A DNA stretch of 64,000 nucleotides from the NCBI GenBank assembly GCA_017615635.1, contig JAFZZR010000005.1, positions 5,258 through 69,257 of the forward strand, in the 5' to 3' direction. Every line of letters begins with the position of its first letter. Within the stretch, counting starts at the first letter, position 1. A program made the translations under genes and the position numbers. Below are positions 23,787 through 61,699 of the stretch, piece by piece. The notes under the pieces were generated by a model. It saw only the letters and a list, made by a program, of their open reading frames with translations, was not told the origin of the DNA and did not search any database. This DNA comes from Lentisphaeria bacterium (GTDB taxonomy: Bacteria > Verrucomicrobiota > Lentisphaeria > Victivallales > UBA1829).

Positions 23787-23808
23787 GGGGCAGGGCTGAT
23801 CCTGCCCC
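23787..23808 (-). terminator. GC-rich hairpin immediately 3' of the 1015-aa gene stop (no U-tract)
   Basis: GGGGCAGG-gctgat-CCTGCCCC is a perfect 8-bp stem starting 1 nt after the stop codon. It lacks a following T/U run, so it is either a factor-dependent terminator or an mRNA-stabilising hairpin. Confidence 0.3.
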
Positions 23809-23809
23809 G

Positions 23810-26800
23810 TTACCTGTCCTTGAAAAACTTCAGACTGTAACTCATCTTCCAGGTCGCAGCCTTGTGCGGATCGTTGTCCGGATAGGCGTCCGGCCAGATC
23901 ATTTCCAGCGAAGCGGACCCTTTGTCCCGCCAGACAAACAGCTGATCCACGTCGGGCGCGGAAAGTTCGATCCTGTATTGCCCGTTGATCGGACGGACTG
24001 CGAAAGTATCGCCCTTCAGCAGTCCGGGCTCCTTCTTGAGCCATTCCGAAAGAAACGGTTTGCCGCCTGGAAGTTTCGCTCCATCGCGGAGGAAGGCAAT
24101 ATGGCCGAGACTTCTGTCCGTGATTTCCCCCACCGTTACTTCCGAGGCCGGATCTTCGGGAAGCGCCGGCAGCGGCATGATGAAGTTGTTGACGTCCCGC
24201 AGCCGGAACGGACGGTAGCCGCCTTCCGGAACGATCTCGATATACGCCTTGATCTCCGGAGTATCTCTGGACAGCGTGTACTCCCGGCGGATGCGCAGTC
24301 CGGTGTAGGGCGGTTCCTGGATCACGAAGGAAAAACGGACCTTGACACTTTCCCGGTCAAACGAGAGGTCTTCGATGGCTATATCCCGTTTCCCCAGCTC
24401 GAAAGCACCCTGATCCATGAAAACGCCACGGCCGACAATGTTTGCCATGACATCTTTCCCCGCCTTCCAGACGCCTTCACCGGAATTCTTCAGATCCAGT
24501 TCCAGCGAATGGACCGGAGTGGTGATCACGTATTTATCCGGCGTTTTCATATAGCTCATTCCGTACTTGCTGCCGGACGAGGTGGTTTTACGGTAGTTTT
24601 CAATGGCGGTCTCCTCTTCCTTCGCATAATCGGGGAGGTCGGCGGAGGCTTCTTTCTTTTCCGGCGAAAACTCCAGCAGCTGATACGCCAGCGGCGCCAG
24701 TTTCAGCGTCAGTTTTCCTTCCCGTACCGGAAGGACTTCGCCTGTGAAGAGATCGGTAACGCTGCCTGTGCCGGGATCACAGAGTGGATGAAGGAAAATC
24801 GTCTCCCTCTGGTCGTTGTTGAAGATCAGAGACCAGCTCCGGCCGTCGGCGGCCTTCCGTTCCAGTGCGTAGTATCGTCCGGCGGCGTTGAACCCTTCCC
24901 GGATCTCACGGGTGTTCCGGACCAGTTTTCCCTGGTTCCAGTGCGGTTCGCCCAGCGCAATGAAATTCATTGTCTTGCGCATTTCGCTGACCTGTTCGCC
25001 GTTGGAAATGAAAAGGCCCTGCGCAATGCCGGGAAAATCCTCTTCTCCGGCGCAGAATGCCGCCGCCAGATACTGCATTCCCAGCAGCGGCGCCGAATAC
25101 GGCTTGTTCCAGCCGTTTTGGATCAGGGTGTATTTCGGCTTTTTCAGTTCCAGTGCTTCCCGTTCCAGACTGCGGAAAAAGTCCAGATTGCTCCAGTAGT
25201 TCATGGTTTCGAAACGGTCTGCAAAATCGTCAAACAGGCGGGATCGGCCCCCGTAGGCTTCCTCGTATTCTTCCTCCGTTTCTTTGCGGGGCGCAATTTG
25301 AACGGAACAGAACCCGAAGGCGGCATCCGGATTGATTTTTTTAACTGCTTCCACCACGGTCCGCACCGAGGCGGCCCGCTGACGACACCGGAAATCCACC
25401 CAGGCCCGGCGGTGTTTCTTCAGGATTTCCTCCCCCGTCAGATTTTCCGGCAGACCGTTCTCCTTTGCGAACGCCTTAATGCAATCCCGGCAGAAGCAGC
25501 TCGTCGTGACAGGCCCGATAACATACGGCTCGTAGTCCCAGGTGATGTAGCTTGCCTTTTTCAGGAGATTATAAAATTTTTTGCTCGAGGCCAATGATTT
25601 CCGGAGAAAATCCGGCCCGGCGGCCGCAAAGGCGCTGTCGCAGTAAAGCGGCACGGGCGCTCCGGAGGGATCTACCGCCTGCGGAAGATCCAGTATTTTC
25701 GGATTCCAGCTGTAAGGAATGCGCCAGTTAAGTTCCACATACGGCAGGTCAACCCAGCCCGATCTTTCCCAGTACTCTTTCAGCCGGATCCCCAGCGTGT
25801 TTTCCGGATCGGCGGCGTCGATCTGCGTCACCGGCATGGACTGCCAGGAGAAATACCGCCTTTTTCCCGGCAGTTTTCCTCCCGGATATCCGGAAATCTG
25901 TTTCACGGGGACCGTGAAGCTGATCTTCTTCCCTCCGTATTCGAAGTCCATCCCAATCGCGAACTCATCCGGGACCTGGTTCTCCGCGCAGAAGATCAGG
26001 CTGCCGCCCCAGGCTGCCCAGTCGTATTCCCTGCCGATCAGATACCGGTTCTCCTCGCCGGGAATTCTGACCAGTTTATCTGTTCCCCGTTTCATCATGT
26101 ACAGTTCGCACGACACCCCTTCTGGCGCAGTAATGGTCATGACGATGTCCCGGCGCGGCATGGTTTTGGAATTGAGCCGGAAGAAACCGACCCCGTCTTT
26201 TTCCAGCATGTACGGCGTTCCGGGCGGGAATCCCGTGAACCTCTCCTGAAACGGCTGATCCGGAAGAATGGCGTCATTCGCTTTCGGTCCGGGTGGCGGC
26301 ACGGCCTTCTGCCCCGTGTATTCGGTCAGTTCCGGATTCCGGAAATACATGGCCCGGTCCTCTCCCGGTTTTCGGGACAGATTGTACACGCACAGAAAAA
26401 TCGTCAGTTTCCGTGCTTCGGGGATCGAGCCCAGCGGGATGATGAATCCGGTCTGTATCCACTCTTTCTGCGGACCTCTGTAGCCTTGCAGCAAAGGACG
26501 GTGCACAACCAGTTTCTTTCCGTTTTCATCCAGCACCGAATACAATATCTCCGCCGGATGATCCAGCTGATCCGACTTCATGTCGATGGCAAAATAGTAG
26601 CTTTTGCCCGGTATCACATTGACTGTCTGGTAGAGCGAACTGTTGTAGTTGGCCGTTTTTTCGCTGATCCGGACGATCCCGTTCTCTGTTTTGTAGGCCT
26701 CTCTTGCGCCCTCCCAGGAGGCGCCGCCCCAGTGATCCGGGAGGAATCCGGTCCCACTGGCAAATTCCGGATTGCAAAACAGATTTTCTTCGCCCTGAAG

Positions 26801-26857
26801 GCTTGCTGCGGCGGCGGAAAGAATCAGCAGCCCGGCTATTGCTTTTTTGATATTCAT
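23810..26857 (-). CDS. secreted 1015-aa putative glycan-active enzyme: N-terminal CBM4_9-like module plus CxCxxC-containing catalytic-like region
   Basis: It has a signal peptide (MNIKKAIAGLLILSAAAASLQG). The CBM-like start is NLFCNPEFASG...WGGASWEG...YYFAIDMKSD. An internal SCFCRDCIKAF motif resembles the two DUF4838-like proteins in the window. Confidence 0.7.
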   Translation of the reverse strand: MNIKKAIAGLLILSAAAASLQGEENLFCNPEFASGTGFLPDHWGGASWEGAREAYKTENGIVRISEKTANYNSSLYQTVNVIPGKSYYFAIDMKSDQLDHPAEILYSVLDENGKKLVVHRPLLQGYRGPQKEWIQTGFIIPLGSIPEARKLTIFLCVYNLSRKPGEDRAMYFRNPELTEYTGQKAVPPPGPKANDAILPDQPFQERFTGFPPGTPYMLEKDGVGFFRLNSKTMPRRDIVMTITAPEGVSCELYMMKRGTDKLVRIPGEENRYLIGREYDWAAWGGSLIFCAENQVPDEFAIGMDFEYGGKKISFTVPVKQISGYPGGKLPGKRRYFSWQSMPVTQIDAADPENTLGIRLKEYWERSGWVDLPYVELNWRIPYSWNPKILDLPQAVDPSGAPVPLYCDSAFAAAGPDFLRKSLASSKKFYNLLKKASYITWDYEPYVIGPVTTSCFCRDCIKAFAKENGLPENLTGEEILKKHRRAWVDFRCRQRAASVRTVVEAVKKINPDAAFGFCSVQIAPRKETEEEYEEAYGGRSRLFDDFADRFETMNYWSNLDFFRSLEREALELKKPKYTLIQNGWNKPYSAPLLGMQYLAAAFCAGEEDFPGIAQGLFISNGEQVSEMRKTMNFIALGEPHWNQGKLVRNTREIREGFNAAGRYYALERKAADGRSWSLIFNNDQRETIFLHPLCDPGTGSVTDLFTGEVLPVREGKLTLKLAPLAYQLLEFSPEKKEASADLPDYAKEEETAIENYRKTTSSGSKYGMSYMKTPDKYVITTPVHSLELDLKNSGEGVWKAGKDVMANIVGRGVFMDQGAFELGKRDIAIEDLSFDRESVKVRFSFVIQEPPYTGLRIRREYTLSRDTPEIKAYIEIVPEGGYRPFRLRDVNNFIMPLPALPEDPASEVTVGEITDRSLGHIAFLRDGAKLPGGKPFLSEWLKKEPGLLKGDTFAVRPINGQYRIELSAPDVDQLFVWRDKGSASLEMIWPDAYPDNDPHKAATWKMSYSLKFFKDR

Positions 26858-26871
26858 CTAAAAACTCTCCG

Positions 26872-27705
26872 TCAGTGATTTTTCCCGCTGTACCGCAAAT
26901 AAGAATAATCATCCCAAAGAGATTTGTAGCGGGCGATCGAACCGTCGCAGTGAATCACATTCAACTCATTCTTGTGGCGCTTCGCGACCCGTACACCCAT
27001 ATCGTTTCGATAATCGGTAATGATGAAGCATACGGAACCGTCTCCGAACATCATGGTCGATGAAGGATATTTGATTCTCGTCTGGAGCATTCCGCTGTTG
27101 ATGCCTATCCCGCCGTGTCCGGGTCCCCAGTATTCTATCGCATTCTTTGCCAGACTCGAATAAGTTGCGTTGTAGATATACGTTGTGAAATCCTTGGAAT
27201 GAACGGCCAGTTTCCCGCTGGGATCGTCGGAGAGGAATATACTTCTGCTCTGCTCTTTTTCCGACTCCGGACAGCGCAGAAATCCATCCAGCGCCAAATA
27301 CCGGGTAGAGCGCTGACGACCGACCGTCGCCTGGGAAAAATATCCCAGACGCATCAGAATGTCCGCCCAGGTAGGTTCATATCGGTCGCTTGCGCTGATA
27401 TATGTCCACCCCATGAACGTTACGCTTTCGAGACGGTTCCCGTTTTCATCCGTAATCATTCTCGGCGGGAAATAATTGAAATCATTCGCATAACTCAGCG
27501 TCGACAACCCGATCTGCCGGAGATTGTTCTTGCATTCGAGATCGGTTGCATGGGACTTTGCCGAACTCAAAGCCGGCATCAGCATCCCTGCGAGAATGGC
27601 GATGATGGCGATGACGACCAGCAGTTCGATGAGCGTAAAACGCTTCAGGTATGGTCCTTCTTCGCTGAGGACGTGGATGAAAGTGCGGCTGTCGGATTTC
27701 AGCAT
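26872..27705 (-). CDS. prepilin-type N-terminal cleavage/methylation domain protein with H-X9-DG motif (pseudopilin-like)
   Basis: [27 protein letters not shown]-terminus and C-terminal [12 protein letters not shown]. It lies 14 nt upstream of the 1015-aa enzyme gene on the same strand. Confidence 0.85.
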
Positions 27706-27752: not shown

Positions 27753-27780
27753 ATTATACTCGCTTTTTCCGAAATGTCAA
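27753..27780 (-). promoter_or_regulatory. consensus sigma70-type promoter of the pseudopilin gene
   Basis: The minus strand reads TTGACATTTCGGAAAAAGCGAGTATAAT (TTGACA-16-TATAAT), about 45 nt upstream of ATG 27705. It matches the promoter at 51554-51581 at 27 of 31 positions. Confidence 0.6.
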
Positions 27781-31094: not shown

Positions 31095-32423
31095 TTACCC
31101 GTTTTTCCGCAAGGGATCGCAGGAAAGCCGTTCAAAATCGCAGCAGACCGAATTTTCGGAGTAAAACGGTGCTTCCCATAAATTTGAACGGCCATCCGCC
31201 CAATGAAGATGCATGTTCCGGCAGATCACGTTTTCGGCATAGAGAACGGCGAATGCATGGGGCTGGTAAAACCGCCAGCCGTCGCCGATCCTCCGGTGAT
31301 CGTTTTCATCCGCGTTTTTGACGATTTGATGTCCGCCGCCGACGGTCAGATCGATGTCCTGGAGAAGGATGTTCCGGACTTTACGGTCCCTGTCGCCCTG
31401 GATCAGGGCGGTGCCCTCGGCATAAACGCGGATATTGCGGAGTGTGATATTTTCGATATCGGCTCCGTTACCGTCTTTCTGCGGCATGAGTGCGTAGTGT
31501 TCCATAATGCAGAACGGGATCAGCCGGGATCGGAGGGAGACGTCGCTGATCAGGATATCCCGAATCGTCAGGCCGGTATCCTGACTGTGGCTGTAATGGC
31601 CATGGATCGTGATGCCGAGCGTGCAGTCGGGGATGATGAGATTGCGGAGAGAACATTCCCGGATAGTGCCGGAGCCAACTCCGAAACGAACGGCGGCCTG
31701 ATCCGAACTTAAAATGCAATCGGAAACCGTGACCTGCGCCGTTTCTGCCGGGGTGCCCTGCAGTTTCTTCCCGTTGGCGCGGATGGCGATACAGTCATCC
31801 GCCGTGTCGATGTCGCAGCCTTTGATAACTACATTGGTACAGCAGTCGATATCCAGCCCGTCGCCGTTCCAGTCCTTCCGTCCGGTCCGGATCCGGACGC
31901 CGGAAACCGTGATTCTCCGGCATCCGTGAAAGAAGCAGCTCCAGTAGGCGGCATTTCGGAGCTGGATATCCTGCAAGGTGATATCGGCCGATTCGCAGAA
32001 ATAGAGCATCTGCGCCGGACGCAGACCGGGGAAGGTACTGCGGGTATGCTTTTTCGGATCGAAAAAAACTTCCCGGTTTCCGTCAATGACACCTCCGCCG
32101 GAAATCGTCACGTCTTCCACATTCACAGCTGCGATCAGATGAGTCCCATCCGTTTTTTCACGAACGGAAGCACTGTTTTGCGGGGTGAAATCGGCCCGAT
32201 TATAACATGTGCGGTCCGGAGTGGCCTTCAGCACGGCCCCCTTTTGGATTTCGAGCCGGGTGCGTGAACGCAGATAAATGGTGCCGGTGAGATAGACTCC
32301 GGGCGGAATGACGACCGTACCGCCTCCTTGTCTGCCGCAAAGATCCAATGCTTTCTGAATGGCTGCGGTGCAGTTGGTAAGGCTGTCTCCCGCTGCCCCG
32401 TAATCCGTAATGACATGCATCAT
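31095..32423 (-). CDS. glycoside hydrolase family 28-like (polygalacturonase/rhamnogalacturonase-type beta-helix), no signal peptide
   Basis: N-terminus ITDYGAAGDSLTNCTAAIQKAL, parallel beta-helix repeats, and NGDGLDIDCC...GCDIDTADDCIAI (GH28 catalytic Asp cluster). Confidence 0.8.
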   Translation of the reverse strand: MMHVITDYGAAGDSLTNCTAAIQKALDLCGRQGGGTVVIPPGVYLTGTIYLRSRTRLEIQKGAVLKATPDRTCYNRADFTPQNSASVREKTDGTHLIAAVNVEDVTISGGGVIDGNREVFFDPKKHTRSTFPGLRPAQMLYFCESADITLQDIQLRNAAYWSCFFHGCRRITVSGVRIRTGRKDWNGDGLDIDCCTNVVIKGCDIDTADDCIAIRANGKKLQGTPAETAQVTVSDCILSSDQAAVRFGVGSGTIRECSLRNLIIPDCTLGITIHGHYSHSQDTGLTIRDILISDVSLRSRLIPFCIMEHYALMPQKDGNGADIENITLRNIRVYAEGTALIQGDRDRKVRNILLQDIDLTVGGGHQIVKNADENDHRRIGDGWRFYQPHAFAVLYAENVICRNMHLHWADGRSNLWEAPFYSENSVCCDFERLSCDPLRKNG

Positions 32424-32435
32424 GTTTCTTCTCGA

Positions 32436-34682
32436 TCAGGGGTGTAATACGGGTTCCAGTACGATCCGGTCTATGAAAATGGCATTGCTGTCTTCGGCTT
32501 TTCCTCCGGGGTAAGCCGGACCGGTAAATTTCATGCTGACATGGATCCTCCATGGCGAATCGGGATCCGCAGTCCAGGCCGGACTTTGCGGGAACTGGAC
32601 AAACCATTTGTTGGTCAGATAAATATATCCTGCCGGACGGGGACGAAACGTTTCCCCGATCGTATACCAGCGGTAGCCTGGACCTTTGATTTCCTCTCCG
32701 GTGATTCGTGCCGAAAAATGTTCGGAACGGGTCTGCTGGTCATATCCGCCGATCAGCACGGGTAAAACCCCCTGCCGGACACGGACCGCGTATCCGAGGG
32801 GGGACTCGGGGTCCTTGACCAGCGGTTCACCGCCTGCCCACCAGCTTGCCAGTTCGATCGGAATATCTATGCCGTTCGCCGCCTCGTTTTGCGGAGGGAT
32901 CGTTTCCGGCAGGATGTCATAAACATCCATTCTGGCGATTTTGGCGAGACAGTGCGCCTGCCTTTTCGGGTCGATGCAGGTTTCGATCGAAGTCCGAAGC
33001 GTTTCCTTCAAACGTTTTGCGGCAATCCGGGGATCCAGACCGTGTCCCGGATCCTCCAGATTGAATTTGCGGATAAAAAGTATGATCGCTTCATCGATCC
33101 CGGCACGGGCTTCGCGGACACGTCGAACCCGAACCGGATCGTCTTGAACGGCCGATTCCGCCTGTTCCAGCAGCTTATCGCAAGCGGAAACCGTCTTGCA
33201 ATCCAGATGGGTAAAGGAGAACGCGGACGGCATGAACGCGGTAATGAAAGGTTTCTTTTCCCGGACCGATGCAAGCAGCGTCAGCCGATATTGCCGAATG
33301 AACGGTGCCGCCTTCCCGTAATACCCGTTCAGGAACGTATTCAGCAGCGTATCGAAATCGGCGTCCGGGTCTTCCATCAGTTTTGCATGCAGCCAGGTTT
33401 TCATCACCGCCATGTCGGTATGATAAATATATTCCCGCTCGACGAAAGGAAACAGGACATTGTGCGCTCTGTAATACCGCAAGGTCTCCTGGAGGAAGAA
33501 TTCGCTTGGATACGGCAGTCCCCGGGCAAATCCGTTGAAGGATATGCCGTAGTCCCAAATTCCCAGACTGTCCGTCAGCCCGCCCCAGTCTTTAAGCCTT
33601 TGACGGAACGGTTCTTCGCCGGCTCCTTCCGGTCCGCCGGCAAAATTGTTGGCCGTATTGCAGAGCCGGATCACGATATTGTCTTCCAGCGTGATATTGC
33701 GCGGCGGCGCTTCTGTCTGAAAATATGCCAGTGTGGAAATTTTCAAATCCGGACGGAACTGCTTCAGTCTGCGGGCAAGCTGATTGATCAGATTCAGCTG
33801 CAGTCCGGACTCCGCATTTCCGTAATAGGCACGCAGTTGACTGCACCTTTCACAAACGCAGAAAGAGTTGTTGTCGTTTTGGGAAATATCGTAAATGCCG
33901 GGCGCGGGACTGCCGTTCCCTTCGGCTTTCGCCTCGTCGGCAAGAATGAAGCCCTGCAGTTTCTTCCACATGACGTCGACCAGTTCGGGATTGCTCAGAC
34001 ACAACTGTCCTTCCATCCGGTTCGGATTGCGATTCCCTTTCCGCGTCAGGGAAAAATATTCCGGATGCGTCTGAAAGAATTCCGCCTCGGGAACATACCG
34101 GTTGAACGTATGGACGCTGTACGGGGAACCATAGCGAAAGCCTCCGCCGTTGGCTGCGGAAATCCAGCGGTCTCCAAACGAGTTCAGACGGTTGAACGCC
34201 GCGAAATCGCCGTCATCCCATTTTTCACTGTAATCCGGAAATATCGCCCGGATCGGGAACGCCGGTTTTCCCCGCAAGTCCAGTTTCGGCAGACACAGTT
34301 CTTTTCGGTGCGGAATCTCCTTTTCGTGCATGCTGAAAAGAAGGATTCCCGCATAGCGTTCCAAAAAAACGGACACCGCATATGTCGTGCCGCGGCGGCC
34401 GCCGCCGAACAGGACAATTCGTCCTTCCACATTTTTGATGCACCATTCCTCCTCGCGGAGATCCTGCCCGAGCGATTTCGCCAGCGCAGTTTCTCCCACA
34501 TGAAATTCCGCGGGCTGCCCCTCAACCGTGATTTCCCCCTCTACGCTTTCCGACAGATATTTCCGCAGATCGGCAGCCGCCTTCTTCTCCCATATCTGCG
34601 GATCGTCCGGCAGAATGATTTTCACATCGGCGCCCAGACATGCTGCGGCACAGCACATCAGTCCGGCAAAATACTTCAGCAT
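32436..34682 (-). CDS. secreted DUF4838-like putative glycoside hydrolase
   Basis: It has a signal peptide (MLKYFAGLMCCAAACLGA), an N-terminal GH20b/GH67N-like module (RGTTYAVSVFLERYAG) and a CxCxxC motif (SFCVCERCSQL). The architecture is as I recall for DUF4838 proteins. Confidence 0.7.
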   Translation of the reverse strand: MLKYFAGLMCCAAACLGADVKIILPDDPQIWEKKAAADLRKYLSESVEGEITVEGQPAEFHVGETALAKSLGQDLREEEWCIKNVEGRIVLFGGGRRGTTYAVSVFLERYAGILLFSMHEKEIPHRKELCLPKLDLRGKPAFPIRAIFPDYSEKWDDGDFAAFNRLNSFGDRWISAANGGGFRYGSPYSVHTFNRYVPEAEFFQTHPEYFSLTRKGNRNPNRMEGQLCLSNPELVDVMWKKLQGFILADEAKAEGNGSPAPGIYDISQNDNNSFCVCERCSQLRAYYGNAESGLQLNLINQLARRLKQFRPDLKISTLAYFQTEAPPRNITLEDNIVIRLCNTANNFAGGPEGAGEEPFRQRLKDWGGLTDSLGIWDYGISFNGFARGLPYPSEFFLQETLRYYRAHNVLFPFVEREYIYHTDMAVMKTWLHAKLMEDPDADFDTLLNTFLNGYYGKAAPFIRQYRLTLLASVREKKPFITAFMPSAFSFTHLDCKTVSACDKLLEQAESAVQDDPVRVRRVREARAGIDEAIILFIRKFNLEDPGHGLDPRIAAKRLKETLRTSIETCIDPKRQAHCLAKIARMDVYDILPETIPPQNEAANGIDIPIELASWWAGGEPLVKDPESPLGYAVRVRQGVLPVLIGGYDQQTRSEHFSARITGEEIKGPGYRWYTIGETFRPRPAGYIYLTNKWFVQFPQSPAWTADPDSPWRIHVSMKFTGPAYPGGKAEDSNAIFIDRIVLEPVLHP

Positions 34683-34700: not shown

Positions 34701-35504
34701 TCAGAAAAGTTTTTTCCGCAATCCGGTCTGCATGAAAACGTACGCCCGGGAGCGGAAAGCTCTTTCGCTCAAATGGTGCCGGTGCAGCTCCTGCAGGTCC
34801 TCCGTCAGCATCGCTTCAGAACTGGAACGGGCCGATCCATCCAGAAAAACCGAGTTCGTTTTGTTGTTATGACGCATGTGAAATGTCGTGGTGGCTTCCC
34901 CGTAGTACTGATTGTCCCAGTCCTGACGGGAATAATCGTTCCGGGCCGTATCACTGAGCAGAGGGGTGCGGTTCGGACATTTTGCCGATCCTGTGATCAG
35001 GAAGTCCTGATCATTGGAATCGCCTGAAATCCGCAGTGACAGGTTCTTTTTTCCTGCGGCAATTTCATCCGTGTTATGTCCTCTCAAATAGGCCAGAGAA
35101 AGAAAGCCGTACACATTGTAGCGGCTGATGGTATCCGCATGAAAGGACGGACAGCGGACAAGCTTTGCCGGATAGATGATCGCATTTTCCTGCTCCGGCA
35201 GATAGCCGTTCTGGAACAGGATTATATACCACAAAGCCTCGCCTTTGGATCGCATCGCACAGATATTGCCGTTGAAGTCGTTGCTGTAACTGAGCAAACT
35301 GATCCCGCACTGTTTCAGATTGCCTATGCACTGGATCGATTGGGCGCTCTGCTTTGCTTTTCCCAGAGCCGGCAGAAGCATTCCCGCGAGAATGGCAATG
35401 ATGGCAATGACGACGAGCAGTTCGATCAGCGTGAATCGCTTCAGGTATGAGGTATGAGGTATGAGGTATGAGGTTCTTAATGCAGATCCCCGGTTCGTCA
35501 TCAT
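34701..35504 (-). CDS. prepilin-type N-terminal domain protein with H-X9-DG motif (pseudopilin-like); heptamer repeat in codons 11-21
   Basis: [47 protein letters not shown] with C-terminal [12 protein letters not shown]. It lies 18 nt upstream of the DUF4838-like gene. The [11 protein letters not shown] residues are encoded by (CATACCT)x4. Confidence 0.85.
35443..35474. repeat. left arm of a perfect 32-bp inverted repeat: (AGGTATG)x4+AGGT on the plus strand
   Basis: Read directly: tc AGGTATG AGGTATG AGGTATG AGGTATG AGGT tc. It lies inside the 5' coding region of the pseudopilin gene. Confidence 0.95.
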
Positions 35505-36966: not shown

Positions 36967-38052
36967 TTAGACTTTCCCATTGTGTGCTTTCAGCTGCGCC
37001 GCCAGGGAATCGGATATTTCAAACCGGGTCGGGATCACCAGATGCCGTGGAGTCGGATCATCAATCAGGGTCAGGATCAATTCGGATAAGGTGCGGGCGA
37101 ATTGATCTTCATCGCAGACCAGATGGCAGAAGTCATCATCGATCCGGGAATAATCCTGCCGCAGACTGGAATAAAAACGGTACGTCACGATCTGATAATC
37201 GGATCCGCAGGTCGAACCGGTCCGTTCCAATTCATCCTTGAGCGCCGCGGCCGCAGGGGTGCTTTCAACCCAGTAAAGCCGATGATCCCGGATCCGTTCC
37301 AGATTTTCGTGAACTGCCCGGACGCCGTCCCGATACGTCGCCAGACCGGATGAGATCAGCCCGGAACCATACAGCACAACCCTGGACCGGGTAAGGGAAA
37401 TATGGTGTTTTCTGAGTTGTCTACGGAGCAGATGCAGTTTTTCCTCCGCATCCCGGTCACAATACCCGAAAAAGAACGAATCCCTGAGCAGCGGCAGCGG
37501 GATTTGTTCCGTTGCCTGCCTGAACGATGTTTCATGATCGTACCGGATCGACGAGATCAGCGAATGGAATCTCGCCGGTTTCCAAATATCGGATCCGGTG
37601 TAGTAGCAAATGACCCGCCGGCTGATACGATGGAAGAGTTCGATGGTCTGCCCATTCAGGAGAGAGGAGCCGACAATATAAAGATCGGCAATGTCGGATT
37701 TGATGATGTGCCGGACGTGTAAAATCATTTTCGGCGAAGAAAAGTCCACCCGGATCAGCGTCAGCGTATAGCCGCTGGCCTGGAGATGGTCGCATAATTG
37801 GCGAAGCATGAAACGGCAGGTATCCAGATCGTGATCCATTCGCCCCATTACAAAACCGATCTTGAACGTACGATATCGGGGCTTTATACCGTTTTTGACC
37901 GGATACCCGTGCGTTTGGCACAAAGACAGGATTTCCGCCCGCTTTTCAGCGGAAATCTGCCAGGCACGATGGGGATTGAGCGCACGGGAAACCGTTGACT
38001 GGCTTACACGGGCCAGTCTGGCGATTTCCGCTCCGGAAATCTTTGGATTCAT
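36967..38052 (-). CDS. LacI-family transcriptional regulator
   Basis: HTH ISGAEIARLARVSQSTVSRALNP plus a sugar-binding-type domain. ATG at 38052 follows AGGAGA; the track start at 38118 was rejected. Confidence 0.8.
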   Translation of the reverse strand: MNPKISGAEIARLARVSQSTVSRALNPHRAWQISAEKRAEILSLCQTHGYPVKNGIKPRYRTFKIGFVMGRMDHDLDTCRFMLRQLCDHLQASGYTLTLIRVDFSSPKMILHVRHIIKSDIADLYIVGSSLLNGQTIELFHRISRRVICYYTGSDIWKPARFHSLISSIRYDHETSFRQATEQIPLPLLRDSFFFGYCDRDAEEKLHLLRRQLRKHHISLTRSRVVLYGSGLISSGLATYRDGVRAVHENLERIRDHRLYWVESTPAAAALKDELERTGSTCGSDYQIVTYRFYSSLRQDYSRIDDDFCHLVCDEDQFARTLSELILTLIDDPTPRHLVIPTRFEISDSLAAQLKAHNGKV

Positions 38053-38158
38053 GCTGGTTCTCCTGTCTCTTCCGAAAATAATATACAGCGCGTGCCGAAT
38101 AAAACAAATGTCATGCATAAAAATCTGAATTAAAATATAAATATTATTTGTAATAAGT

Positions 38159-47278: not shown

Positions 47279-47298
47279 CAACCGAATAAGGAGCCATT

Positions 47299-49554: not shown

Positions 49555-49642
49555 GTGGATACCATAGCGCGGTTTTCGTGAAAATCAAATCTCATAATGT
49601 GAGCATTTTTTCACTTTTCCGGTTTTTTGTCTTCCGCGTGCC

Positions 49643-49671: not shown

Positions 49672-49703
49672 TACCGCAGGAAAAAACGACAAAGGAGGCA
49701 CGA

Positions 49704-54378: not shown

Positions 54379-55113
54379 ATGAGAATGAGAAAGAAAGACT
54401 TCACGCTGATCGAGCTCTTGGTCGTCATCGCCATCATCGCCATTCTGGCGGGGATGCTGTTCCCGGCGCTTGGGACGGCGAAAAGCAAGGCCCTGGCCGT
54501 CCAGTGCATCAATCAGCAGAGACAGTTTTATTATCCTCTGATGGCCTACTCGGACGACAACGAAGGCTACTCCGTCCCGCTTTTCGGGGATGGTCTGGTC
54601 GTCGGCGGAGACACCTGCAACATGGCGGTGAAACTGCTCTACCGGCTCGGGTATCTGAAGGGAAGTTCGTTCAATAACTACCGGCGCAGCAATCTGGTCT
54701 GTCCGATGCTCTCCTCCCCTGAGAGTGCGATCCATAACAACGGCAGCTCGTATGGAATGTTCCGCCATGCAAGCCAGACCAAAAATCAGATGTATGAAGG
54801 GCCGACAGCCGAAAAAGGCTGGTTCCCGATCTACAAGCGCATCAAGCACCCGAGCAATGTCGGTCTGGCCGCGGACAGCTGGGACGAGACGGAGCGGAGG
54901 CAATGGTCGGTCATTCTGCTGGACTATGCGAAAGCGGGAACACCCATTACCGGAGGCACCGGGGTCATGCCGGTCCATTCCAAAAAGGCGAATATGCTGA
55001 TGATGCCGGGGAACGTGCAGCAGTGGTCGATGGAGGATCTCTCGCGCACGAAAATGAGCTGGAGCAATACCGACGATTATTTTGCCCAGGTCCCGTTCTA
55101 CATTGGCCGTTAA
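54379..55113 (+). CDS. prepilin-type N-terminal domain protein, H-X9-PG variant (pseudopilin-like)
   Basis: [31 protein letters not shown] with C-terminal [12 protein letters not shown]. It lies 21 nt upstream of the DUF4838-like gene. Confidence 0.85.
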
Positions 55114-55134: not shown

Positions 55135-57561
55135 ATGAAAAAACATCTTTTCGCTTTGATCGCGGTTTTGGGGATTCTCCCTCTTGATGCCGGAGACTTT
55201 GTCCTCGTCAGAAACCATAAGCCGCAATGCTCCATTGTCCTGCCGGAAAACGACAACGGAAGCGGCGTGGTCGGGACGGCGGTCTGGCACTTCAACCAGA
55301 CGCTGAAAACCATCACGGGAACGACTCTGCCGACGGTCCGGAAGGCCCCGGAAGGGAACCGGATCACCTTCGTCCTCCGGGAGGCGGATTCCCTGCTGAC
55401 GGTGGACAACTACACGCTGTCTTTTCCTGATTCCCGGACGCTTCAGATCGAGGCGACGAAGGATTCCGTGCAGTGGGCGTTTCATCACATCATCCGGGAG
55501 TTTGCCAAAGCGGAATGGATTCTTCCGGAGACCTGCGGCCTGAGCTATACGCCTCTGACCGACCTCGCCGTCCCCATGGAGAAAGTCGAAGTCAAAGACA
55601 TCTCCTGGGCGATCTCCCGGATCCACAATCCCGGCACCCTCTGGCGGAAATTCAATTACCGGCCCGGTCTGCGCATCGGCCATGACCTGACGCTTCACGC
55701 CTTCCCGGCGGAAAAATACAAAAAGGACAACTCCTGGCCGGAAACGATCATGCCCGTTCTGAACGGGAAGAAGATCACCGCCCTGCCGTTCCCGGAGAAT
55801 CCCGTGAATTTCTGGCAGCCGTGCTACTCGAATCCGGAGACGGCCCGGATCGCGGTGGAAAACATTCTGGAGTATCTGGAGAAGCATCCGGGGACGCTGG
55901 GGCTGAGTCTGGGGACCAACGACAACAGCGGCTTCTGCGAATGCGCCGAGTGTCTGAAGCTGGACCGGAACAACCGGGGCAACCGCTCGGAATCCTATTT
56001 CACGTTCATCAACCGGGTGCTGGAGAAGGTCTGCGAAAAGTATCCGAAGCTGACCGTTTCGGTGTTCGCCTACGACAAGACCTACCGGCCGCCCTCGTTC
56101 AAGCTGCACCCGAACGCGCTGGTGTATCTGACCATCGACATCAACTCCTGCGCGGATCCGGTCATCTGCGAGAGGCACAGGAAGATCATTTCCGAATGGG
56201 GAAGCAAGGCCGCCATGCTGGGCGTGTGGGACTATTCGTGGGGCTATCCCTATCCGGCGCCCCGGATGTACGCACCGTACCATCTGGACATCCTCAAGTT
56301 TCTGTATGAGAATCATGCGAAAGCCTACTATGGAGAATGCTGGGTGCACGACGCCTTCGAAGGGCCCAAGCAGTACCTGATCTCCAAACTTCTCTGGAAC
56401 AGCGAGCAGGACATGCAGAAACTGGAGGACGACTGGTATGTCCGCTGCGTGGGCAAAAAGGCCGCTCCCTACCTGAAAGCCTACTATAAAGTCTGGAACG
56501 ACTACTTCACCGGGGCCGCCCGGAAGACGCCCTGGTTCAGAAGCGCCTGGAACGTCTATATGGCCTATTACGATCTCTCCAGCAGCTACGGCCTGGAAGA
56601 GAAAGACCTTCAGGCGGCGGACGAGGCCATGCGTCAGGTGGTCGCGCTGGCGGAGACCGATCAGGAACAGGCCCGCGCCGCGCTGATGATGCGCCACTGG
56701 CAGTACACGTTCCTCCGTCTGCGCATGCTGGGATCCGCCGTCTACGCTCCCGACGGTTCCATCTCCTCTCCGGAACAGGCTCTGCGGCTTCTCGACGCCG
56801 TCGCAAAATATCCGGAGTACATGCGGCAGTACCGGGAGATCAGTGACCGTCTGATCCAGGATCCGGCCATCCGCACCGAATATCTGAACAAGTACTACAT
56901 GAAGGAACTCGGTTCGCCCATCGGCCGGAGCTTCGACCAGTCCGTCGGAAAACATATCCTGGCGGCGTCCGCGTTTGCCGGACAGCCGGAGGTCCGGCAG
57001 GCCATGACGGCGGTCGCCGGCGATCCGGACCAGTTCCCCCTCATGCGGCAGCTCTGCCGCGCCCTGTCGGATCCCGCCGCGCAGCAGAATCTTCTTCCGG
57101 ACGGCAACGCGGAAAACGGCATTCCGCCTATGGCGGAGATCCATCCGGAATTGAGACGGTACGGCGAGCTTTCCATTACCGACCGGTATCATGCGGAAGG
57201 GGAAAAATCGTTTCAGATCTCGGTCAAGGGGCCCGACACTCTGTTCTGGATCCAGGTCCCGGCAAATCCCGATACCACCTATCTGGTCACGTTCAAGGCC
57301 TTCATCCCGCAGCCAAGTGCAGAAGGGTATCTGGAAACCAATCTCTATGCCCAGCGGAACGGCATCCCTCAGCAGTACCGGCTGCCGCCGCCCCTGAAAC
57401 TTTCCGGCGGCATATGGCAGACCTTCTCCGTGCTGACTTCCACAAGGCCGAACTCGAATGGGCTTCGGCTCCGCATCCATCTGCGGGAGTTCGAAAACGG
57501 AGATGAGGTCTTCATCGACGATATCCGGATCATGGAGATCGGAGAAGTTTCGGATAAATGA
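55135..57561 (+). CDS. secreted DUF4838-like putative glycoside hydrolase with C-terminal CBM4_9-like module
   Basis: It has a signal peptide (MKKHLFALIAVLGILPLDAG), the CxCxxC motif GFCECAECLKL (Cys codons 55936-55953) and a C-terminal beta-sandwich ending FIDDIRIMEI. The antisense 1102-aa ORF is shadow. Confidence 0.75.
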   Translation: MKKHLFALIAVLGILPLDAGDFVLVRNHKPQCSIVLPENDNGSGVVGTAVWHFNQTLKTITGTTLPTVRKAPEGNRITFVLREADSLLTVDNYTLSFPDSRTLQIEATKDSVQWAFHHIIREFAKAEWILPETCGLSYTPLTDLAVPMEKVEVKDISWAISRIHNPGTLWRKFNYRPGLRIGHDLTLHAFPAEKYKKDNSWPETIMPVLNGKKITALPFPENPVNFWQPCYSNPETARIAVENILEYLEKHPGTLGLSLGTNDNSGFCECAECLKLDRNNRGNRSESYFTFINRVLEKVCEKYPKLTVSVFAYDKTYRPPSFKLHPNALVYLTIDINSCADPVICERHRKIISEWGSKAAMLGVWDYSWGYPYPAPRMYAPYHLDILKFLYENHAKAYYGECWVHDAFEGPKQYLISKLLWNSEQDMQKLEDDWYVRCVGKKAAPYLKAYYKVWNDYFTGAARKTPWFRSAWNVYMAYYDLSSSYGLEEKDLQAADEAMRQVVALAETDQEQARAALMMRHWQYTFLRLRMLGSAVYAPDGSISSPEQALRLLDAVAKYPEYMRQYREISDRLIQDPAIRTEYLNKYYMKELGSPIGRSFDQSVGKHILAASAFAGQPEVRQAMTAVAGDPDQFPLMRQLCRALSDPAAQQNLLPDGNAENGIPPMAEIHPELRRYGELSITDRYHAEGEKSFQISVKGPDTLFWIQVPANPDTTYLVTFKAFIPQPSAEGYLETNLYAQRNGIPQQYRLPPPLKLSGGIWQTFSVLTSTRPNSNGLRLRIHLREFENGDEVFIDDIRIMEIGEVSDK

Positions 57562-57598: not shown

Positions 57599-60589
57599 AT
57601 GCTTGACGAGGTCTATTATTACGATTTCAGCAGGGAACAGCCGATCGACTGGGAAGTTTTATCTCGGGATGAAAACAAGTTCAGGGTGAAGGCGGAAATT
57701 CAGCACGATGCGGGGAAAAAACTCCTGCTTGCGGAGGAAAGGATTCGTGACTTCACCTTGAAGCTGCCACGGATCCGCGAGTTCATCCTGAACGGGGAAC
57801 GGCTGGATTTCGGGAAGAGAGCCTCATCCGCCTATATCGGGAAGGGCTTCATCCGCCGAGGTATGGAAATCGAGCTGAAGCAGGGACTCAATACCCTTGA
57901 GGCCGAGGGAGAATATCCGAATGACGATCTGCTTGCGCTCATAAAAACGACTCTGGCCGAGCCGCTGTCCCCCGTCAGGGAAAGTGAGCCTGTGCATACC
58001 GTCATTCCCTGTCCGGACTATCCGGAATACGCGCCGGAGGGGAATGAACCCGATTTGACCGGATACACGCCCGGGATCGGCTGCCGGGAGACGCCCGGGC
58101 GGTTCGGCTTCGCCAAAGGCAGCGGTTTCCTCGATTACGGGATGCCCGTGCTGGGAAGTTTCGACAAGATGTATCTGTGCGGACATCCGGAATACCACAA
58201 GCCCTTCCGGTGGAGTTATTCCACATTGCCGAAGGGGGCGCCGCGCCACGGTTCCTGGCGTCCGGCGGATCACGGCATCGAGGGCGATACGATCCGGATC
58301 AATCATCTTTCCTGCTTCTGGTGTGCCGATCTGGACGGAATCGAATTTTCCTGTACGGGTTCCCTGGCTTCGCCCGGCGTGATAACGGAACGGTCGGACG
58401 GGCGCATGCGGATCGGCGATCTGGAATTTGCGGGGAACTATCAGTACATGATGATCCCGCGGAAAGACGGCACGCTGGAAATCAGCACTTTGAAGGATGT
58501 CCGCGCCCTGACCATGGGGAAGAATTTTCTGCTGCTTTTCGGCTGCACCGAGTTTCCCGATCTGCCTCTGCTCCTGGTTTTCCAAAAACAGCCCCGGAAC
58601 ATGAGGCTGGAATTCCGTCCGGACAGCGGACGGCTTTCCGCCATCGAATTCGAAAACTGCCCGCTCCTGATCAGCGCCACGCCGTTCGGCTTCGAAAGTT
58701 TCAAGCCCATTCGCCCGGACGATGCGGATTTTCTCCGGAAAGCGGCGGAACGGTGTCTTTTCTGGAGCCGGGCACTGCTGGCCTTTCCCGTGCGGTGCGA
58801 AGAGTACTTCCGGAACGATCTTGAACGGAAGCATGCCTCCATCATCCAGAAGTTCCGTTACCGGGTTATCCGCGATGAATGGAACACAGTTCCCCTGGAA
58901 CTGGCGCCGCTGCCGCCTGTCCTCTCGATCAGCGGTCTTTACGACACGCAGAAGGAGATGGACTTTCATTTTCCGACCAAGCACGGCCATCTGACGGGCC
59001 GGATCGGCAATACATCCTCGTATGTCCTGCCGTGGATGCCGACGGCCAGAAAGTTTCCGCTGTGCAGCGAGGGGAGGGGAAGCGAATGGAAGGCGCTTCT
59101 GAAAAAAGGATTCCGAAGCTATTTCGATTTCGTGACTTCCTTCCCCGAATCCACCCAGTCCTATCCCTATGCGGGGGCGGTTCTGGAGCCCTTTGCCTGG
59201 ACGGCGACCCTGTTCAATTTTCTGGATGATGCCGACCGTGAAAAACTTTCGGAGCTCCTTCAGCAAAGACTCCGCATCGTCTGCGATCCGGAATCCAGAT
59301 ACAAGTATCCGGTGATCGACTGGGGCTACATGATGAAGACCATGCCGGACGATCAGGATGTGCTGGCATATTACCGTCGGCCGGAAATGAATCATCTCGT
59401 GCTTTGGAACTGGTATGAACGGGTGGAGCCGTTCACGAAGACCTCGTACCGGATCTGTTATCTGAATGTGAATAATTTCACCTGGAAACGGATCTCCGAG
59501 GGCAGCCGTGAGGAGGTTCGTTCGCTGAACCAGCCCATGATCGAAAACGACTGGGGTCTGGGTTTGACGTTCTATTATGTTTACCTGGCCTGCCTGATTT
59601 CGGGCGATTTCAGCACGGTCCGTAAAAGCTGGAGCCTCCTGAACGACGCATTCAGTTACTTCTCCAAAATGCACGACTGGGCCTGCATGGGTACCGGATA
59701 CAGCGAAAACGGAATTCTCTGGGTGGAGGGCGCCAACTACGGCGCTTTCACCTCGTACATCAATCTGGCCGAGGCGATCGGGGACCGTACGTCCTGGGAA
59801 TACGGGCAGTATCTTGCCGCAAAGCAGCAGGCGCTCCGGCACGGCATCTTCCGCGGGGCGCAGCACTACTTCTGCAAACTCTACGGCGTCGAACCGTGGC
59901 ATATCCTGAAAATCATGGAAGATGAGGCCAGCCCTTATCCGCAGCACATGGGCGTTCCGGACATCATGGACGATCTGCGGCTCCGGCCCGGCGGTGCCTA
60001 CAATCTGACTACGGAAGGCCTGTACCCGGAACTCTTCGCCGGCCTGAAGGAATTTCAAAAAGAGGACTATGAAATCCTGCTGAAAAAATTGAAGGAATCC
60101 ATTCGCCGGAAACCCGACTGCGCCAAGACAGACTGGACCCGGATCCAGGAAGCCGCATCTTTGCTGATCTGCATGGCGCTGGACCCCGATTTCTCCTCGG
60201 AAGAACTTCGGGATGAGATCGATTTTCTCCGCCGGCATGGCCGCCTGATCACGAAATGGCGGGGCATCCATATTTTCAGCCGCCGTTTGCCCGAAAATTA
60301 TTTCGAAGCCCAGCTGCTGGCCTGGGACGATATGAAGCATCATCCGATCTGGCTCGAATACTGGCAGAATGTGAAGATCCTTTCGGCGGAATGGCGCGAC
60401 CATGCCGCTGAGCTCGTCTTCGAGGCAAAAACGGGGGCGAAGATCCGTTTCGGATGCCGGATGAGACCTGTGCAGCTCCTTTTGAATGGCGCAGAAACAG
60501 CCGGAAAGTTCGATGCCGGAATTCTGGAGCTCGAACCGGAAACGTCCGGAAATCTGCGGATCATTTTTGACGGCAAGCCGGAGAAATAA
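57599..60589 (+). CDS. 996-aa cytoplasmic protein of unknown family (alpha-helical C-terminal half; candidate novel glycan-active enzyme)
   Basis: ATG follows AGGGAGACAGG. There is no signal peptide and the amino-acid composition is balanced, unlike the antisense 859-aa shadow. It is embedded between the DUF4838-like and mutarotase genes. No motif I can place in a known family. Confidence 0.65.
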   Translation: MLDEVYYYDFSREQPIDWEVLSRDENKFRVKAEIQHDAGKKLLLAEERIRDFTLKLPRIREFILNGERLDFGKRASSAYIGKGFIRRGMEIELKQGLNTLEAEGEYPNDDLLALIKTTLAEPLSPVRESEPVHTVIPCPDYPEYAPEGNEPDLTGYTPGIGCRETPGRFGFAKGSGFLDYGMPVLGSFDKMYLCGHPEYHKPFRWSYSTLPKGAPRHGSWRPADHGIEGDTIRINHLSCFWCADLDGIEFSCTGSLASPGVITERSDGRMRIGDLEFAGNYQYMMIPRKDGTLEISTLKDVRALTMGKNFLLLFGCTEFPDLPLLLVFQKQPRNMRLEFRPDSGRLSAIEFENCPLLISATPFGFESFKPIRPDDADFLRKAAERCLFWSRALLAFPVRCEEYFRNDLERKHASIIQKFRYRVIRDEWNTVPLELAPLPPVLSISGLYDTQKEMDFHFPTKHGHLTGRIGNTSSYVLPWMPTARKFPLCSEGRGSEWKALLKKGFRSYFDFVTSFPESTQSYPYAGAVLEPFAWTATLFNFLDDADREKLSELLQQRLRIVCDPESRYKYPVIDWGYMMKTMPDDQDVLAYYRRPEMNHLVLWNWYERVEPFTKTSYRICYLNVNNFTWKRISEGSREEVRSLNQPMIENDWGLGLTFYYVYLACLISGDFSTVRKSWSLLNDAFSYFSKMHDWACMGTGYSENGILWVEGANYGAFTSYINLAEAIGDRTSWEYGQYLAAKQQALRHGIFRGAQHYFCKLYGVEPWHILKIMEDEASPYPQHMGVPDIMDDLRLRPGGAYNLTTEGLYPELFAGLKEFQKEDYEILLKKLKESIRRKPDCAKTDWTRIQEAASLLICMALDPDFSSEELRDEIDFLRRHGRLITKWRGIHIFSRRLPENYFEAQLLAWDDMKHHPIWLEYWQNVKILSAEWRDHAAELVFEAKTGAKIRFGCRMRPVQLLLNGAETAGKFDAGILELEPETSGNLRIIFDGKPEK

Positions 60590-60592
60590 GGT

Positions 60593-61699
60593 ATGGATTC
60601 ACGCGGATCGTCAAGGATGCCGTTGATTTTGGATAACGGGATCTTCCGGGCTGAAATTATCCCCGGGATCGGGGGCAATGTCATTGCGTTGCACCATCTG
60701 TCCAGCGGTACGAAACTGCTGCGGGAGCCGACTGATCTGAATGAACTGAAACGGTTTCCCGAACAATTCGGTCTGCCGGTGCTGTTTCCGCCGAACCGGA
60801 TCGAAGACGGACAATTCTCTTTCGAAGGGAGACGCTGTCAACTGCCTGTGAATGAAAGGGCGCTGAACAATCATCTGCATGGCCTGGCGGTGAATAAACC
60901 ATGGAAGATAATTTCATCGGATAAATGTTCCGCAGAACTCCAATTCGTTTTTACCCCGGCAAATCCGGAATATGCAGGGTTTCCGTTTGCTTTTTCCCTG
61001 AAACGGAAAGTCGAACTGACCGGACAGGGATTGCGGGACAGCATGATGGTGACGAATCACGGGGAATGGAATATGCCGCTGGGGCTGGGATATCACTCCA
61101 CATTTCCCGCGCCGCTGAAAATGAGGATAGGTACAGCCGATCGTCAGATCGAGATCGGCGAACGTCATCTGCCGACCGGACGCTTGACGGAATGGCAGGA
61201 GTTCGATCCCCGCAGCCGGTTCGATCCCCGCGGGTGCAACATCGGATTCCACGCAAGAGCAAAATGCCTGGATTTGGAGGACGGATCCTCCTTTCACGGA
61301 GCGGAACTTCTGTATGACTCCGGGCTTCTCCGCTATATGACGGACGAAAAATTTTCTTTCTGGTATACATGGAACAAACGCGGAGAAGCGGATTTCGTTT
61401 CCGTCGAACCTGTCAGCTGGATGGCCAATGCGCTGAATCAGAAAGAATCCTTACCGGCAGGAGTCCGGATCCTTGCGCCCGGCGGGGAGATCGCATTCCG
61501 CAATGAACTGCTTTTCTGCACGGTCGCTCATGACCTGCACAATCTCCTGCGACCAGGAAAATTTACTCAAAATGAATACTATGAAAATCAGAATGACCGG
61601 GAAGAAAATCAGCCCCTGCATGGTATCGGTAATGATGATCGACAAGGTTCCGCCCATATAAATCAGGCCAATTTCAAAAATTCCGACTCTTGTTCATAA
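60593..61699 (+). CDS. aldose 1-epimerase (galactose mutarotase-like) family protein with anomalous C-terminal tail
   Basis: It shows a mutarotase-like pattern (NHLHGL..., GYHSTF, VSVEPVSW). The family-like sequence ends near ...GEIAFRNELLF (about 61500). The last 66 aa or so are low-complexity and antisense to a symporter remnant. Confidence 0.75.
   Translation: MDSRGSSRMPLILDNGIFRAEIIPGIGGNVIALHHLSSGTKLLREPTDLNELKRFPEQFGLPVLFPPNRIEDGQFSFEGRRCQLPVNERALNNHLHGLAVNKPWKIISSDKCSAELQFVFTPANPEYAGFPFAFSLKRKVELTGQGLRDSMMVTNHGEWNMPLGLGYHSTFPAPLKMRIGTADRQIEIGERHLPTGRLTEWQEFDPRSRFDPRGCNIGFHARAKCLDLEDGSSFHGAELLYDSGLLRYMTDEKFSFWYTWNKRGEADFVSVEPVSWMANALNQKESLPAGVRILAPGGEIAFRNELLFCTVAHDLHNLLRPGKFTQNEYYENQNDREENQPLHGIGNDDRQGSAHINQANFKNSDSCS
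61505..61693 (-). pseudogene. internal fragment of a sodium:solute symporter (SSS family) gene
   Basis: The minus-strand frame reads TRVGIFEIGLIYMGGTLSIIITDTMQGLIFFPVILIFIVFIL. This resembles the conserved Y..GG...V.(W/I)TD..Q region of SSS transporters such as PutP. It is bounded by a stop at 61694-61696 and decays after about 60 codons. Confidence 0.35.

Follow-up and report, generated by a model that had tools for sequence, protein, structure and literature searches.

A 64-kb stretch of contig JAFZZR010000005.1 from a Lentisphaeria bacterium, here called the window, encodes three small pilin-like proteins, and each of their genes stands directly in front of the gene for a large glycosidase-like protein with a signal peptide. 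Pilin and enzyme form a co-oriented two-gene module that is inherited, duplicated and transferred as one unit. The pilin-like protein may be a cargo-specific minor pseudopilin, the head of which would dock the cognate enzyme to a shared machine of the T2SS (type II secretion system) or T4P (type IV pilus) type for export or display; we give this reading a probability of about 40%. The individual parts are known, and their organization into pilin–enzyme pairs is previously undescribed as far as the literature was searched.

Three pilin-like genes and their secreted partners

A six-frame motif search found exactly three prepilin-type N-termini in the 64 kb, in agreement with the original prediction, which had placed three pilin–enzyme pairs at the same coordinates with gaps of 14–21 nt (Table 1). 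All three proteins match the Pfam family N_methyl and begin with a short basic leader (e.g., MRMRKKD or ...YLKR) and continue with about 20 hydrophobic residues. PF07596 (SBP_bac_10/DUF1559; cut-off 23.3 bits) is matched above the cut-off by pilin 1 (36.5 bits), below it by pilin 2 (16.9 bits) and not at all by pilin 3. An NCBIfam search at E ≤ 0.01 reported no H-X9-DG-domain model for any of the three; its weak matches to GspG, GspH, PilA and ComGC covered the N-terminal helix only, and profile matches in the PDB (pilins, GspG) were confined to the same helix.

The N-terminus is the constant part of these proteins. Among 65 sampled pilin-like proteins, Phe is found at position +1 in 97% and Glu at +5 in 100%, and the N-terminal 17 residues are conserved at 86–100%; the H-X9-DG motif is present in 46. 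The leader sequence SYLKR was considered as a recurrent motif and dropped, being found in only three of the 65 leaders. In the leader region of pilin gene 2 (35440–35470, minus strand), the heptamer CTCATAC occurs three times in tandem, and a single copy is present in pilin gene 1. Lying within a reading frame, this 7-nt repeat could allow frame shifts by slippage, as in phase variation.

Table 1. Features of the window, with coordinates counted from its first nucleotide.
Feature	Coordinates	Strand	Description
Pilin-like gene 1	26872..27705	-	277 aa; basic leader, F+1, E+5, hydrophobic helix; H-X9-DG at residue 244; Arg at -1 (codon 27640-27642)
Partner 1, unclassified glycosidase-like protein	23810..26857	-	1015 aa; signal peptide; Cys cluster C406 + C454xC456xxC459
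Pilin-like gene 2	34701..35504	-	267 aa; H-X9-DG at residue 212; Arg at -1 (codon 35438-35440); orthologue in locus L210
Partner 2, DUF4838	32436..34682	-	748 aa; signal peptide; PF16126, E = 9e-76; C228 + C275xC277xxC280
Pilin-like gene 3	54379..55113	+	244 aa; H-X9-PG at residue 200; Asp at -1 (codon 54397-54399)
Partner 3, DUF4838	55135..57561	+	808 aa; signal peptide; PF16126, E = 1.6e-48; C230 + C268xC270xxC273
Promoter-like site TTGACA-16-TATAAT	27753..27780	-	Precedes the start of pilin gene 1 by about 48 nt; 12/12 consensus match only
GH28 (rhamnogalacturonidase/polygalacturonase-like)	31095..32423	-	12 nt after partner 2, same strand; no signal peptide
OCD/mu-crystallin gene	35906-36922		Between the LacI-type regulator and pair 2
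LacI-type regulator	36967..38118	-	Upstream of pair 2, same strand
996-aa protein	57599..60589	+	Downstream of pair 3; no Pfam match, no signal peptide
Aldose 1-epimerase (mutarotase) domain protein	60593..61699	+	No signal peptide; 3' end overlaps the SSF-like remnant on the opposite strand

The pilin and enzyme genes are separated by 14, 18 and 21 nt that include GGAG-like Shine–Dalgarno motifs, and the two genes of each module are probably co-transcribed. A large signal-peptide protein with a CxCxxC motif had been predicted behind each pilin and was found in all three cases. The further claim that the proteins farther downstream lack signal peptides holds for the GH28 protein, the 996-aa protein and the mutarotase, none of which has a signal-peptide-like N-terminus.

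In all three partners, the CxCxxC motif is accompanied by a fourth Cys located 38–48 residues upstream (47–48 residues in two of them, 38 in the 808-aa protein), and the four Cys are invariant in the alignments of both the 1015-aa family and the DUF4838 family. These two unrelated families are thus alike in placing an invariant Cys and a CxCxxC motif in the TIM-barrel region. The arrangement appears similar to the Cys4 zinc site of glycoside hydrolase family 42 (GH42) beta-galactosidases.

GH163 (BT1035) and GH185 (Sp_0475) have DUF4838 as their catalytic domain, which is distantly related to GH20 (PMC10570127). By their PF16126 domains, partners 2 and 3 are predicted to be enzymes of the GH163/GH185 type. 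The 1015-aa protein has no Pfam match. The idea that it might be a cryptic member of DUF4838 was rejected as unproven: BLASTP returned nothing, and hhalign aligned the CxCxxC segment only (probability 0.5%, E = 0.13). Its AlphaFold model (predicted local distance difference test (pLDDT) 87, predicted TM-score 0.80) consists of an N-terminal jelly roll, Ig-like beta-sandwiches, a TIM barrel at the center, in which the Cys cluster lies, and beta-sandwiches at the C-terminus, and Foldseek matched this model only to generic multi-domain TIM-barrel glycosidases. The jelly roll matches the carbohydrate-binding module (CBM) CBM70 of hyaluronate lyase (PDB 4d0q, E = 7e-4) and, weakly, CBM_4_9. The CBM-like module that had been ascribed to every one of the enzymes is thus supported only for the 1015-aa protein; for the C-terminal modules of both DUF4838 proteins, no match was found.

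In several relatives (L001, L002, L004 and L085–L087), the gene for the 1015-aa homologue is followed by a gene for a GH89 alpha-N-acetylglucosaminidase (NAGLU), usually together with a divergent AraC regulator, and in L003 the NAGLU gene is found about 4 kb upstream of the pair. In the window, NAGLU is absent after the 1015-aa gene, where gyrB stands instead (23560–23810). The NAGLU linkage points to glycans containing alpha-N-acetylglucosamine as the substrate of this unclassified enzyme.

The pairing exceeds chance

Among the approximately 45 genes of the window, the three pilin genes are found directly before the only three genes for large signal-peptide enzymes (Fisher P = 7e-5). The original prediction proposed comparing the adjacency across genomes with its random expectation, and a DUF4838 scan (12-sequence alignment, one genome per species, 80 loci obtained) supplied such figures. 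In Lentisphaerota, a same-strand open reading frame (ORF) of 200–276 aa with the prepilin motif is located directly upstream in 23 of the 44 homologues with enough upstream sequence, compared to a background in the flanks of 0.044 pilin-like ORFs per kb, or about 4.9% of genes (binomial P = 5e-19). The downstream slot is occupied by a pilin-like gene in only 3 of 43. A single metagenome-assembled genome (MAG) has a pilin gene of its own for seven of its eight DUF4838 paralogues. Chance adjacency was rejected on these enrichment statistics.

The proteins encoded behind pilin genes also tend to be exported. Signal-peptide-like N-termini are found in 25 of 32 large ORFs (78%) that follow a pilin, versus 66 of 147 others (45%) in the same loci (P = 5e-4). 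No pilin accompanies DUF4838 in any of the 27 loci from Armatimonadota, Zipacnadia, Planctomycetota, Kiritimatiellia and other groups outside the Lentisphaerota, and the pairing of pilins with this particular enzyme family is therefore lineage-restricted.

Pilins and enzymes as cognate pairs

The pilin and the 1015-aa protein occur together in nine of the nine places examined (L001, L003, L004, L085–L089 and a 5865-bp contig common to P0001 and P0143). The relationship holds from both directions: every orthologue of pilin 1 with readable context is followed by a 1015-aa homologue (L085–L089), and every 1015-aa homologue that was looked up and has upstream sequence is preceded by such a pilin (L001, L003, L004). 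One of these, L003, comes from a Phycisphaerales genome and thus belongs to a different phylum, and its 1015-aa homologue is 35% identical to that of the window. The head of its pilin aligns with that of pilin 1 over 209 residues (31% identity, E = 1e-18), whereas the alignment of pilin 1 with pilin 2, from the same genome, covers no more than 22 residues, at the helix end.

For the globular part of pilin 1, word-sharing homologues number only 14, and their identity is 46–49%. Our own family profile finds 322,814 cluster representatives; at E ≤ 1e-10, the superfamily comprises over 170,000 distinct clusters of 50% identity. A full search with a hidden Markov model found that only 18 of the representatives resemble the pilin 1 head at E ≤ 1e-30. 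The pilin heads are therefore hypervariable. Within the pilin 1 orthologue group, the mean column identity of the head is 68%. Across 44 pilin/enzyme pairs, head similarity tracks enzyme similarity (Mantel r = 0.64, 0 of 2000 permutations).

In the two pairs most closely related to pair 2, both the pilin and the DUF4838 gene are retained, and no other neighbor is shared with the window, GH28 included. The conserved, mobile unit is the two-gene pair and not a locus resembling a polysaccharide utilization locus (PUL). The original prediction of three glycan-degradation loci in the window was therefore overstated, since GH28 and the other neighbors are not conserved with the pair and pair 1 is on its own. 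Its other main suggestion, that pilin and enzyme are functional partners, is supported by the enrichment, the conservation of orthologous pairs, the co-divergence and the cross-phylum match between heads.

In the closest-but-one relative of pair 2 (L212, 3107–8209), the pair adjoins genes for a serine recombinase and a type IV secretion system coupling protein of the TraG/TrwB type. Pilin–enzyme pairs may move on conjugative elements.

Other members of the family and their partners

Pilin-like genes make up about 5% of the genes in the sampled Lentisphaerota loci. Those found in the flanks are mostly followed by genes for signal-peptide proteins of 500–1011 aa, at distances of −28 to +50 nt. 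The partner types include DUF4838, GH123-like, GH66 with CBM6, DUF5703_N with GH95-like, and GH42-like proteins, as well as Laminin_G_3 and beta-helix proteins, a metallophosphatase-PQQ protein and several proteins without a Pfam match.

A pilin-centered sample of metagenome contigs, picked by a DNA pattern for the N-terminus, was also considered. Among pilins without Gly or Ala at position −1, the same arrangement, with a large signal-peptide protein after the pilin, is present in seven of the eight that have room for it. The members with Gly or Ala at −1, of about 300 aa, are taken to be DUF1559 proteins of the Planctomycetes type. In loci L149, L152, L156 and L160, such genes are often followed by a lipoprotein-like ORF of 120–240 aa (e.g., MKTLILAAALLLSGCS...), which suggests that this branch of the family has a different, lipoprotein-like standard partner.

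No fusion of a pilin with an enzyme was found among 305 proteins, only tandem or repeated pilin N-termini. In P0166, P0177, P0183 and P0233, two or three copies of the prepilin motif occur about 56 residues apart, each followed by ...PGEKK.GKEKP.... These copies appear to be repeats of 5' gene segments or else tandem starts called in error.

Neighboring genes in the window

The gene map, made with guidance from codon usage, has a G+C content of 52–60%, and the nearest homologues of the studied proteins are found in Victivallales/Lentisphaerae MAGs, many of them from rumen or gut. Pair 1, with gyrB on one side and mgtC on the other, is a two-gene module only. The interval between loci 2 and 3 (45929–48807 and 49578–53978) contains genes for a GH4 enzyme, the tagaturonate epimerase UxaE, an IclR-type regulator, a PF12831 FAD-dependent oxidoreductase and two xylose-isomerase-like TIM-barrel proteins. 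Together with GH28, these islands of GH4, UxaE and TIM-barrel genes point to the catabolism of uronates or pectin-type sugars, scattered among housekeeping genes.

The original prediction stated that the three loci contain no SusC/D, ABC, MFS or TonB-type transporter, and Pfam annotation of the called genes bears this out, there being no multi-transmembrane protein in them either. Neither SusC nor SusD was detected among the called genes of the whole window or in the related loci annotated with Pfam, which also contain no transporter genes of other kinds, and no ABC permease or ATPase adjoins any of the pairs. Unrelated transporters are present elsewhere in the window, outside the three loci. 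A decayed sodium:solute symporter (SSF) fragment had been proposed at 61505–61693. The corresponding 80-codon open stretch on the minus strand (approximately 61500–61690), antisense to the 3' end of the mutarotase ORF, includes a hydrophobic GG..TD..Q segment that matches positions 135–179 of Pfam SSF at E = 0.005 (16 bits). This match, below the curated cut-off, gives the proposal weak support; the stretch is probably a gene remnant.

A possible role in docking enzymes to a pilus-type machine

How might such pairs work? F1, E5 and the helix are extremely conserved in a family that is otherwise hypervariable, which suggests that they interact with one common pilus-type machine or filament core, and since the head is conserved only together with a given enzyme family, the head would be specific for the enzyme or for its glycan. 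In the mechanism that we favor, the near-invariant helix (F1, E5 and about 20 hydrophobic residues) would dock hundreds of paralogues into one shared machine or filament of the T2SS/T4P type, and the fast-evolving globular head would recognize the cognate enzyme. The enzyme, having been exported by the Sec pathway, would then be handed to the machine for passage through the outer membrane, retention on the cell surface or both. The H-X9-DG family would thereby constitute a set of cargo-specific minor pseudopilins, one per enzyme.

Several observations weigh against this mechanism. It is derived from the arrangement of genes, from which we infer the interaction, the export and the assembly alike. 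None of the approximately 45 genes in the window encodes T2SS/T4P machinery (prepilin peptidase, assembly ATPase, platform protein or secretin). The AlphaFold2 model of pilin 1, made from a 14-sequence alignment, has a pLDDT of 38 and is unusable for a fold search; the helix that it places at residues 25–72, with strands after it, would be compatible with a pilin fold, which stays putative for the head. Behind many of the metagenome members with Gly or Ala at −1 there is a small lipoprotein-like ORF (about 140 aa) or no ORF at all, although some precede large secreted proteins. In three loci, tandem pilins precede a conserved 510-aa GH20-type protein without a signal peptide (L062, 12365–15327; L064, 12890 onward; L069, 7162–9400). 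Finally, the pilin gene is missing upstream of 21 of the 44 Lentisphaerota DUF4838 homologues and of 66 other large proteins with signal-peptide-like N-termini, and a pilin partner is therefore not a general requirement for export.

Residue −1 is the other difficulty. Gly at this position is the main determinant of cleavage by prepilin peptidase in type IV pilins. In Lentisphaerota, the pilin-like proteins have Gly in only 3 of 57 cases, Ala in 2 and almost any residue otherwise, and the leaders are often just MKKx. Since the canonical Gly is nearly always missing, processing is uncertain, and the pilins may stay uncleaved or unpolymerized. The pattern suggests either a peptidase of relaxed specificity or unprocessed proteins in the Lentisphaerota. 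Among loci L005–L084, the members from Zipacnadia (4/4) and WS1 (1/1) keep Gly at −1.

A close rival, possible and somewhat less probable, is that the pilin captures substrate rather than enzyme. The head would bind the glycan or the products of the enzyme, and the helix would mount it on a fiber or surface assembly that catches or reels in polysaccharide; the co-divergence of pilin and enzyme would then stem from their shared substrate. The Pfam name SBP_bac_10 and the description of the family as solute-binding proteins in the literature are in keeping with such a role. There are also precedents: sugar-binding proteins of Sulfolobus with class III (pilin-type) signal peptides need a pilus-like bindosome (PMC3047682), and the type IV-like pilus locus MUL2 of Akkermansiaceae serves attachment to mucin and fucoidan (PMC13174399). 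The GH20-type partners, which bear on the choice between enzyme docking and substrate capture, fit the latter, as it accounts for partners that lack a signal peptide and for pilin genes heading operons that go on with cytoplasmic enzymes. However, neither a carbohydrate-binding fold nor such a motif was detected in the heads, the PDB matches being confined to the N-terminal helix, and the enzymes already carry CBM-like modules of their own. The immediate partner is preferentially an exported protein, which sharing a substrate would not by itself require. The missing Gly at −1 is as much of a problem here as it is for enzyme docking.

That problem would disappear if the pilins were simply uncleaved, bitopic proteins of the inner membrane, with a periplasmic head that holds or scaffolds the enzyme where imported oligosaccharides are degraded and with no fiber involved. 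The residues found at −1 and the MKKx leaders give the Lentisphaerota proteins the look of signal anchors, conserved Cys in the heads suggest an oxidizing, extracytoplasmic location, and the window has no linked secretin or ATPase gene. Nevertheless, such a membrane tether is unlikely. A plain anchor has no need for F1, E5 and a helix conserved at 86–100% across hundreds of thousands of divergent paralogues, which is the signature of contact with pilus machinery or a filament core. Since members from other phyla keep Gly at −1, the ancestral state was a processed pilin, and this, too, counts against a tether.

More improbable still is the proposal that pilin-headed, complete loci are a PVC-style counterpart (for the Planctomycetes–Verrucomicrobia–Chlamydiae group) of the PUL, in which a pilus-dependent route for the import of oligosaccharides replaces SusC/D. 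The lack of transporter genes in the three loci and the Pfam-annotated related loci and the lack of signal peptides on the downstream enzymes would be expected under this proposal, and for Planctomycetes there are reports (PMC11131199, citing Boedeker et al.) of polysaccharide uptake into an enlarged periplasm by way of crateriform structures and fibers. However, only the pair is conserved and the composition of the locus is not, and pair 1 stands between gyrB and mgtC. That no transporter is linked does not speak for a new import route, since transporter genes can lie elsewhere in a genome. A transporter encoded at a distance is the simpler explanation, given the unrelated transporters elsewhere in the window and the weak symporter remnant at the edge of locus 3.

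Adjacency without any direct functional link, arising because abundant pilin genes with near-identical 5' ends promote recombination in front of other genes, is very improbable: the abundance of these genes, the repeated N-terminal motif copies of some members, suggestive of recombination-prone sequence, and the one pair that adjoins recombinase and conjugation genes would fit it, but the asymmetry between the upstream and downstream slots, the conservation of cognate pairs across phyla with their co-divergence and the purifying conservation of each head within its orthologue group would not.

Enzyme docking thus stays the preferred reading. A more far-reaching version of it, in which the whole H-X9-DG/DUF1559 superfamily is a "one pilin per enzyme" sorting system, with each member coupling one hydrolase (or its glycan) to a single pilus-type machine through, in the Lentisphaerota, a site without the canonical Gly at −1, is speculative, possible rather than likely. 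If true, it would be a new principle of exoenzyme export or display in PVC bacteria, distinct from Sus systems, cellulosomes and type IX secretion.

Comparison with known systems

The DUF1559/H-X9-DG family is the largest paralogous family in model planctomycetes, with 74 copies in R. baltica and 68 in P. limnophila, and has no known function; Fimbriimonas has 79 PulG-type genes. The H-X9-DG/DUF1559 (PF07596) proteins of PVC bacteria resemble those described here in having an N-terminal domain of the cleavage/methylation type, a C-terminal H-X9-DG, a length of 200–330 aa and dozens of paralogues per genome, and are referred to in the literature only as "unknown function" or "solute-binding". 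In the literature searched, which excludes most subscription journals, there is no account of a one-to-one pairing of pilins with glycosidases, of their co-divergence or of the loss of Gly(−1) in Lentisphaerota. A cognate, co-diverging pairing with secreted glycosidases makes the function of this very large family testable and would explain how exoenzymes are organized in PVC polysaccharide degraders that lack Sus-like systems. In addition, where a pilin-like gene lies immediately upstream, unannotated secreted proteins can be picked out as candidates for new glycoside hydrolase families, as with the 1015-aa family. Partners 2 and 3 have PF16126 in common with GH163 (BT1035) and GH185 (Sp_0475), of which the 1015-aa partner is not a detectable member.

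The T2SS exports folded hydrolases delivered by Sec, and its pseudopilins (GspG/PulG and the minor pseudopilins) have the same class III-type N-terminus with F+1 and E+5. Unlike them, the proteins described here score far below the equivalog cut-offs, are not linked to a gspC–O operon, have unrelated head sequences, lack Gly at −1 and number hundreds of paralogues rather than five. To our knowledge, dedication of a pseudopilin to a single cargo is not known for the T2SS.

In Bacteroidota Sus-like PULs, too, a glycosidase that is secreted or located at the surface goes with a non-catalytic partner, and the downstream enzymes are cytoplasmic or periplasmic. These PULs differ in having SusC/SusD and a TonB-dependent transporter, whereas the conserved unit here comprises two genes and none of these. 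In modular type IV pilins such as S. sanguinis PilB, the functional module is carried on the pilin scaffold as a fusion, unlike the separate proteins found here.

The Sulfolobus bindosome (Bas system, PMC3047682) resembles the present system in its pilin-type N-termini, and its pilus-like assembly serves sugar acquisition rather than motility or adhesion. It is, however, archaeal, and its components are binding proteins of ABC transporters encoded beside permeases; here, the partner is an enzyme, with no transporter. Akkermansia MUL2 is a PVC pilus-type system for attachment to glycans (PMC13174399), but it consists of one locus, which includes PilM and an archaeal-type pilin, compared to hundreds of enzyme-paired genes.

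In Verruconatronum alginivorum, a pulG-like pseudopilin gene with 67 homologues in the genome is found in an alginate-induced cluster, another pseudopilin is over-expressed on substrate, and the authors suggest export of alginases by the T2SS (PMC13274419). Although this is a single, anecdotal Opitutales cluster with polysaccharide lyases instead of DUF4838 enzymes, described without pairing statistics or cognate co-evolution, it is the nearest published hint of the present system: a PVC bacterium with a PulG-like gene in a polysaccharide-degradation cluster.

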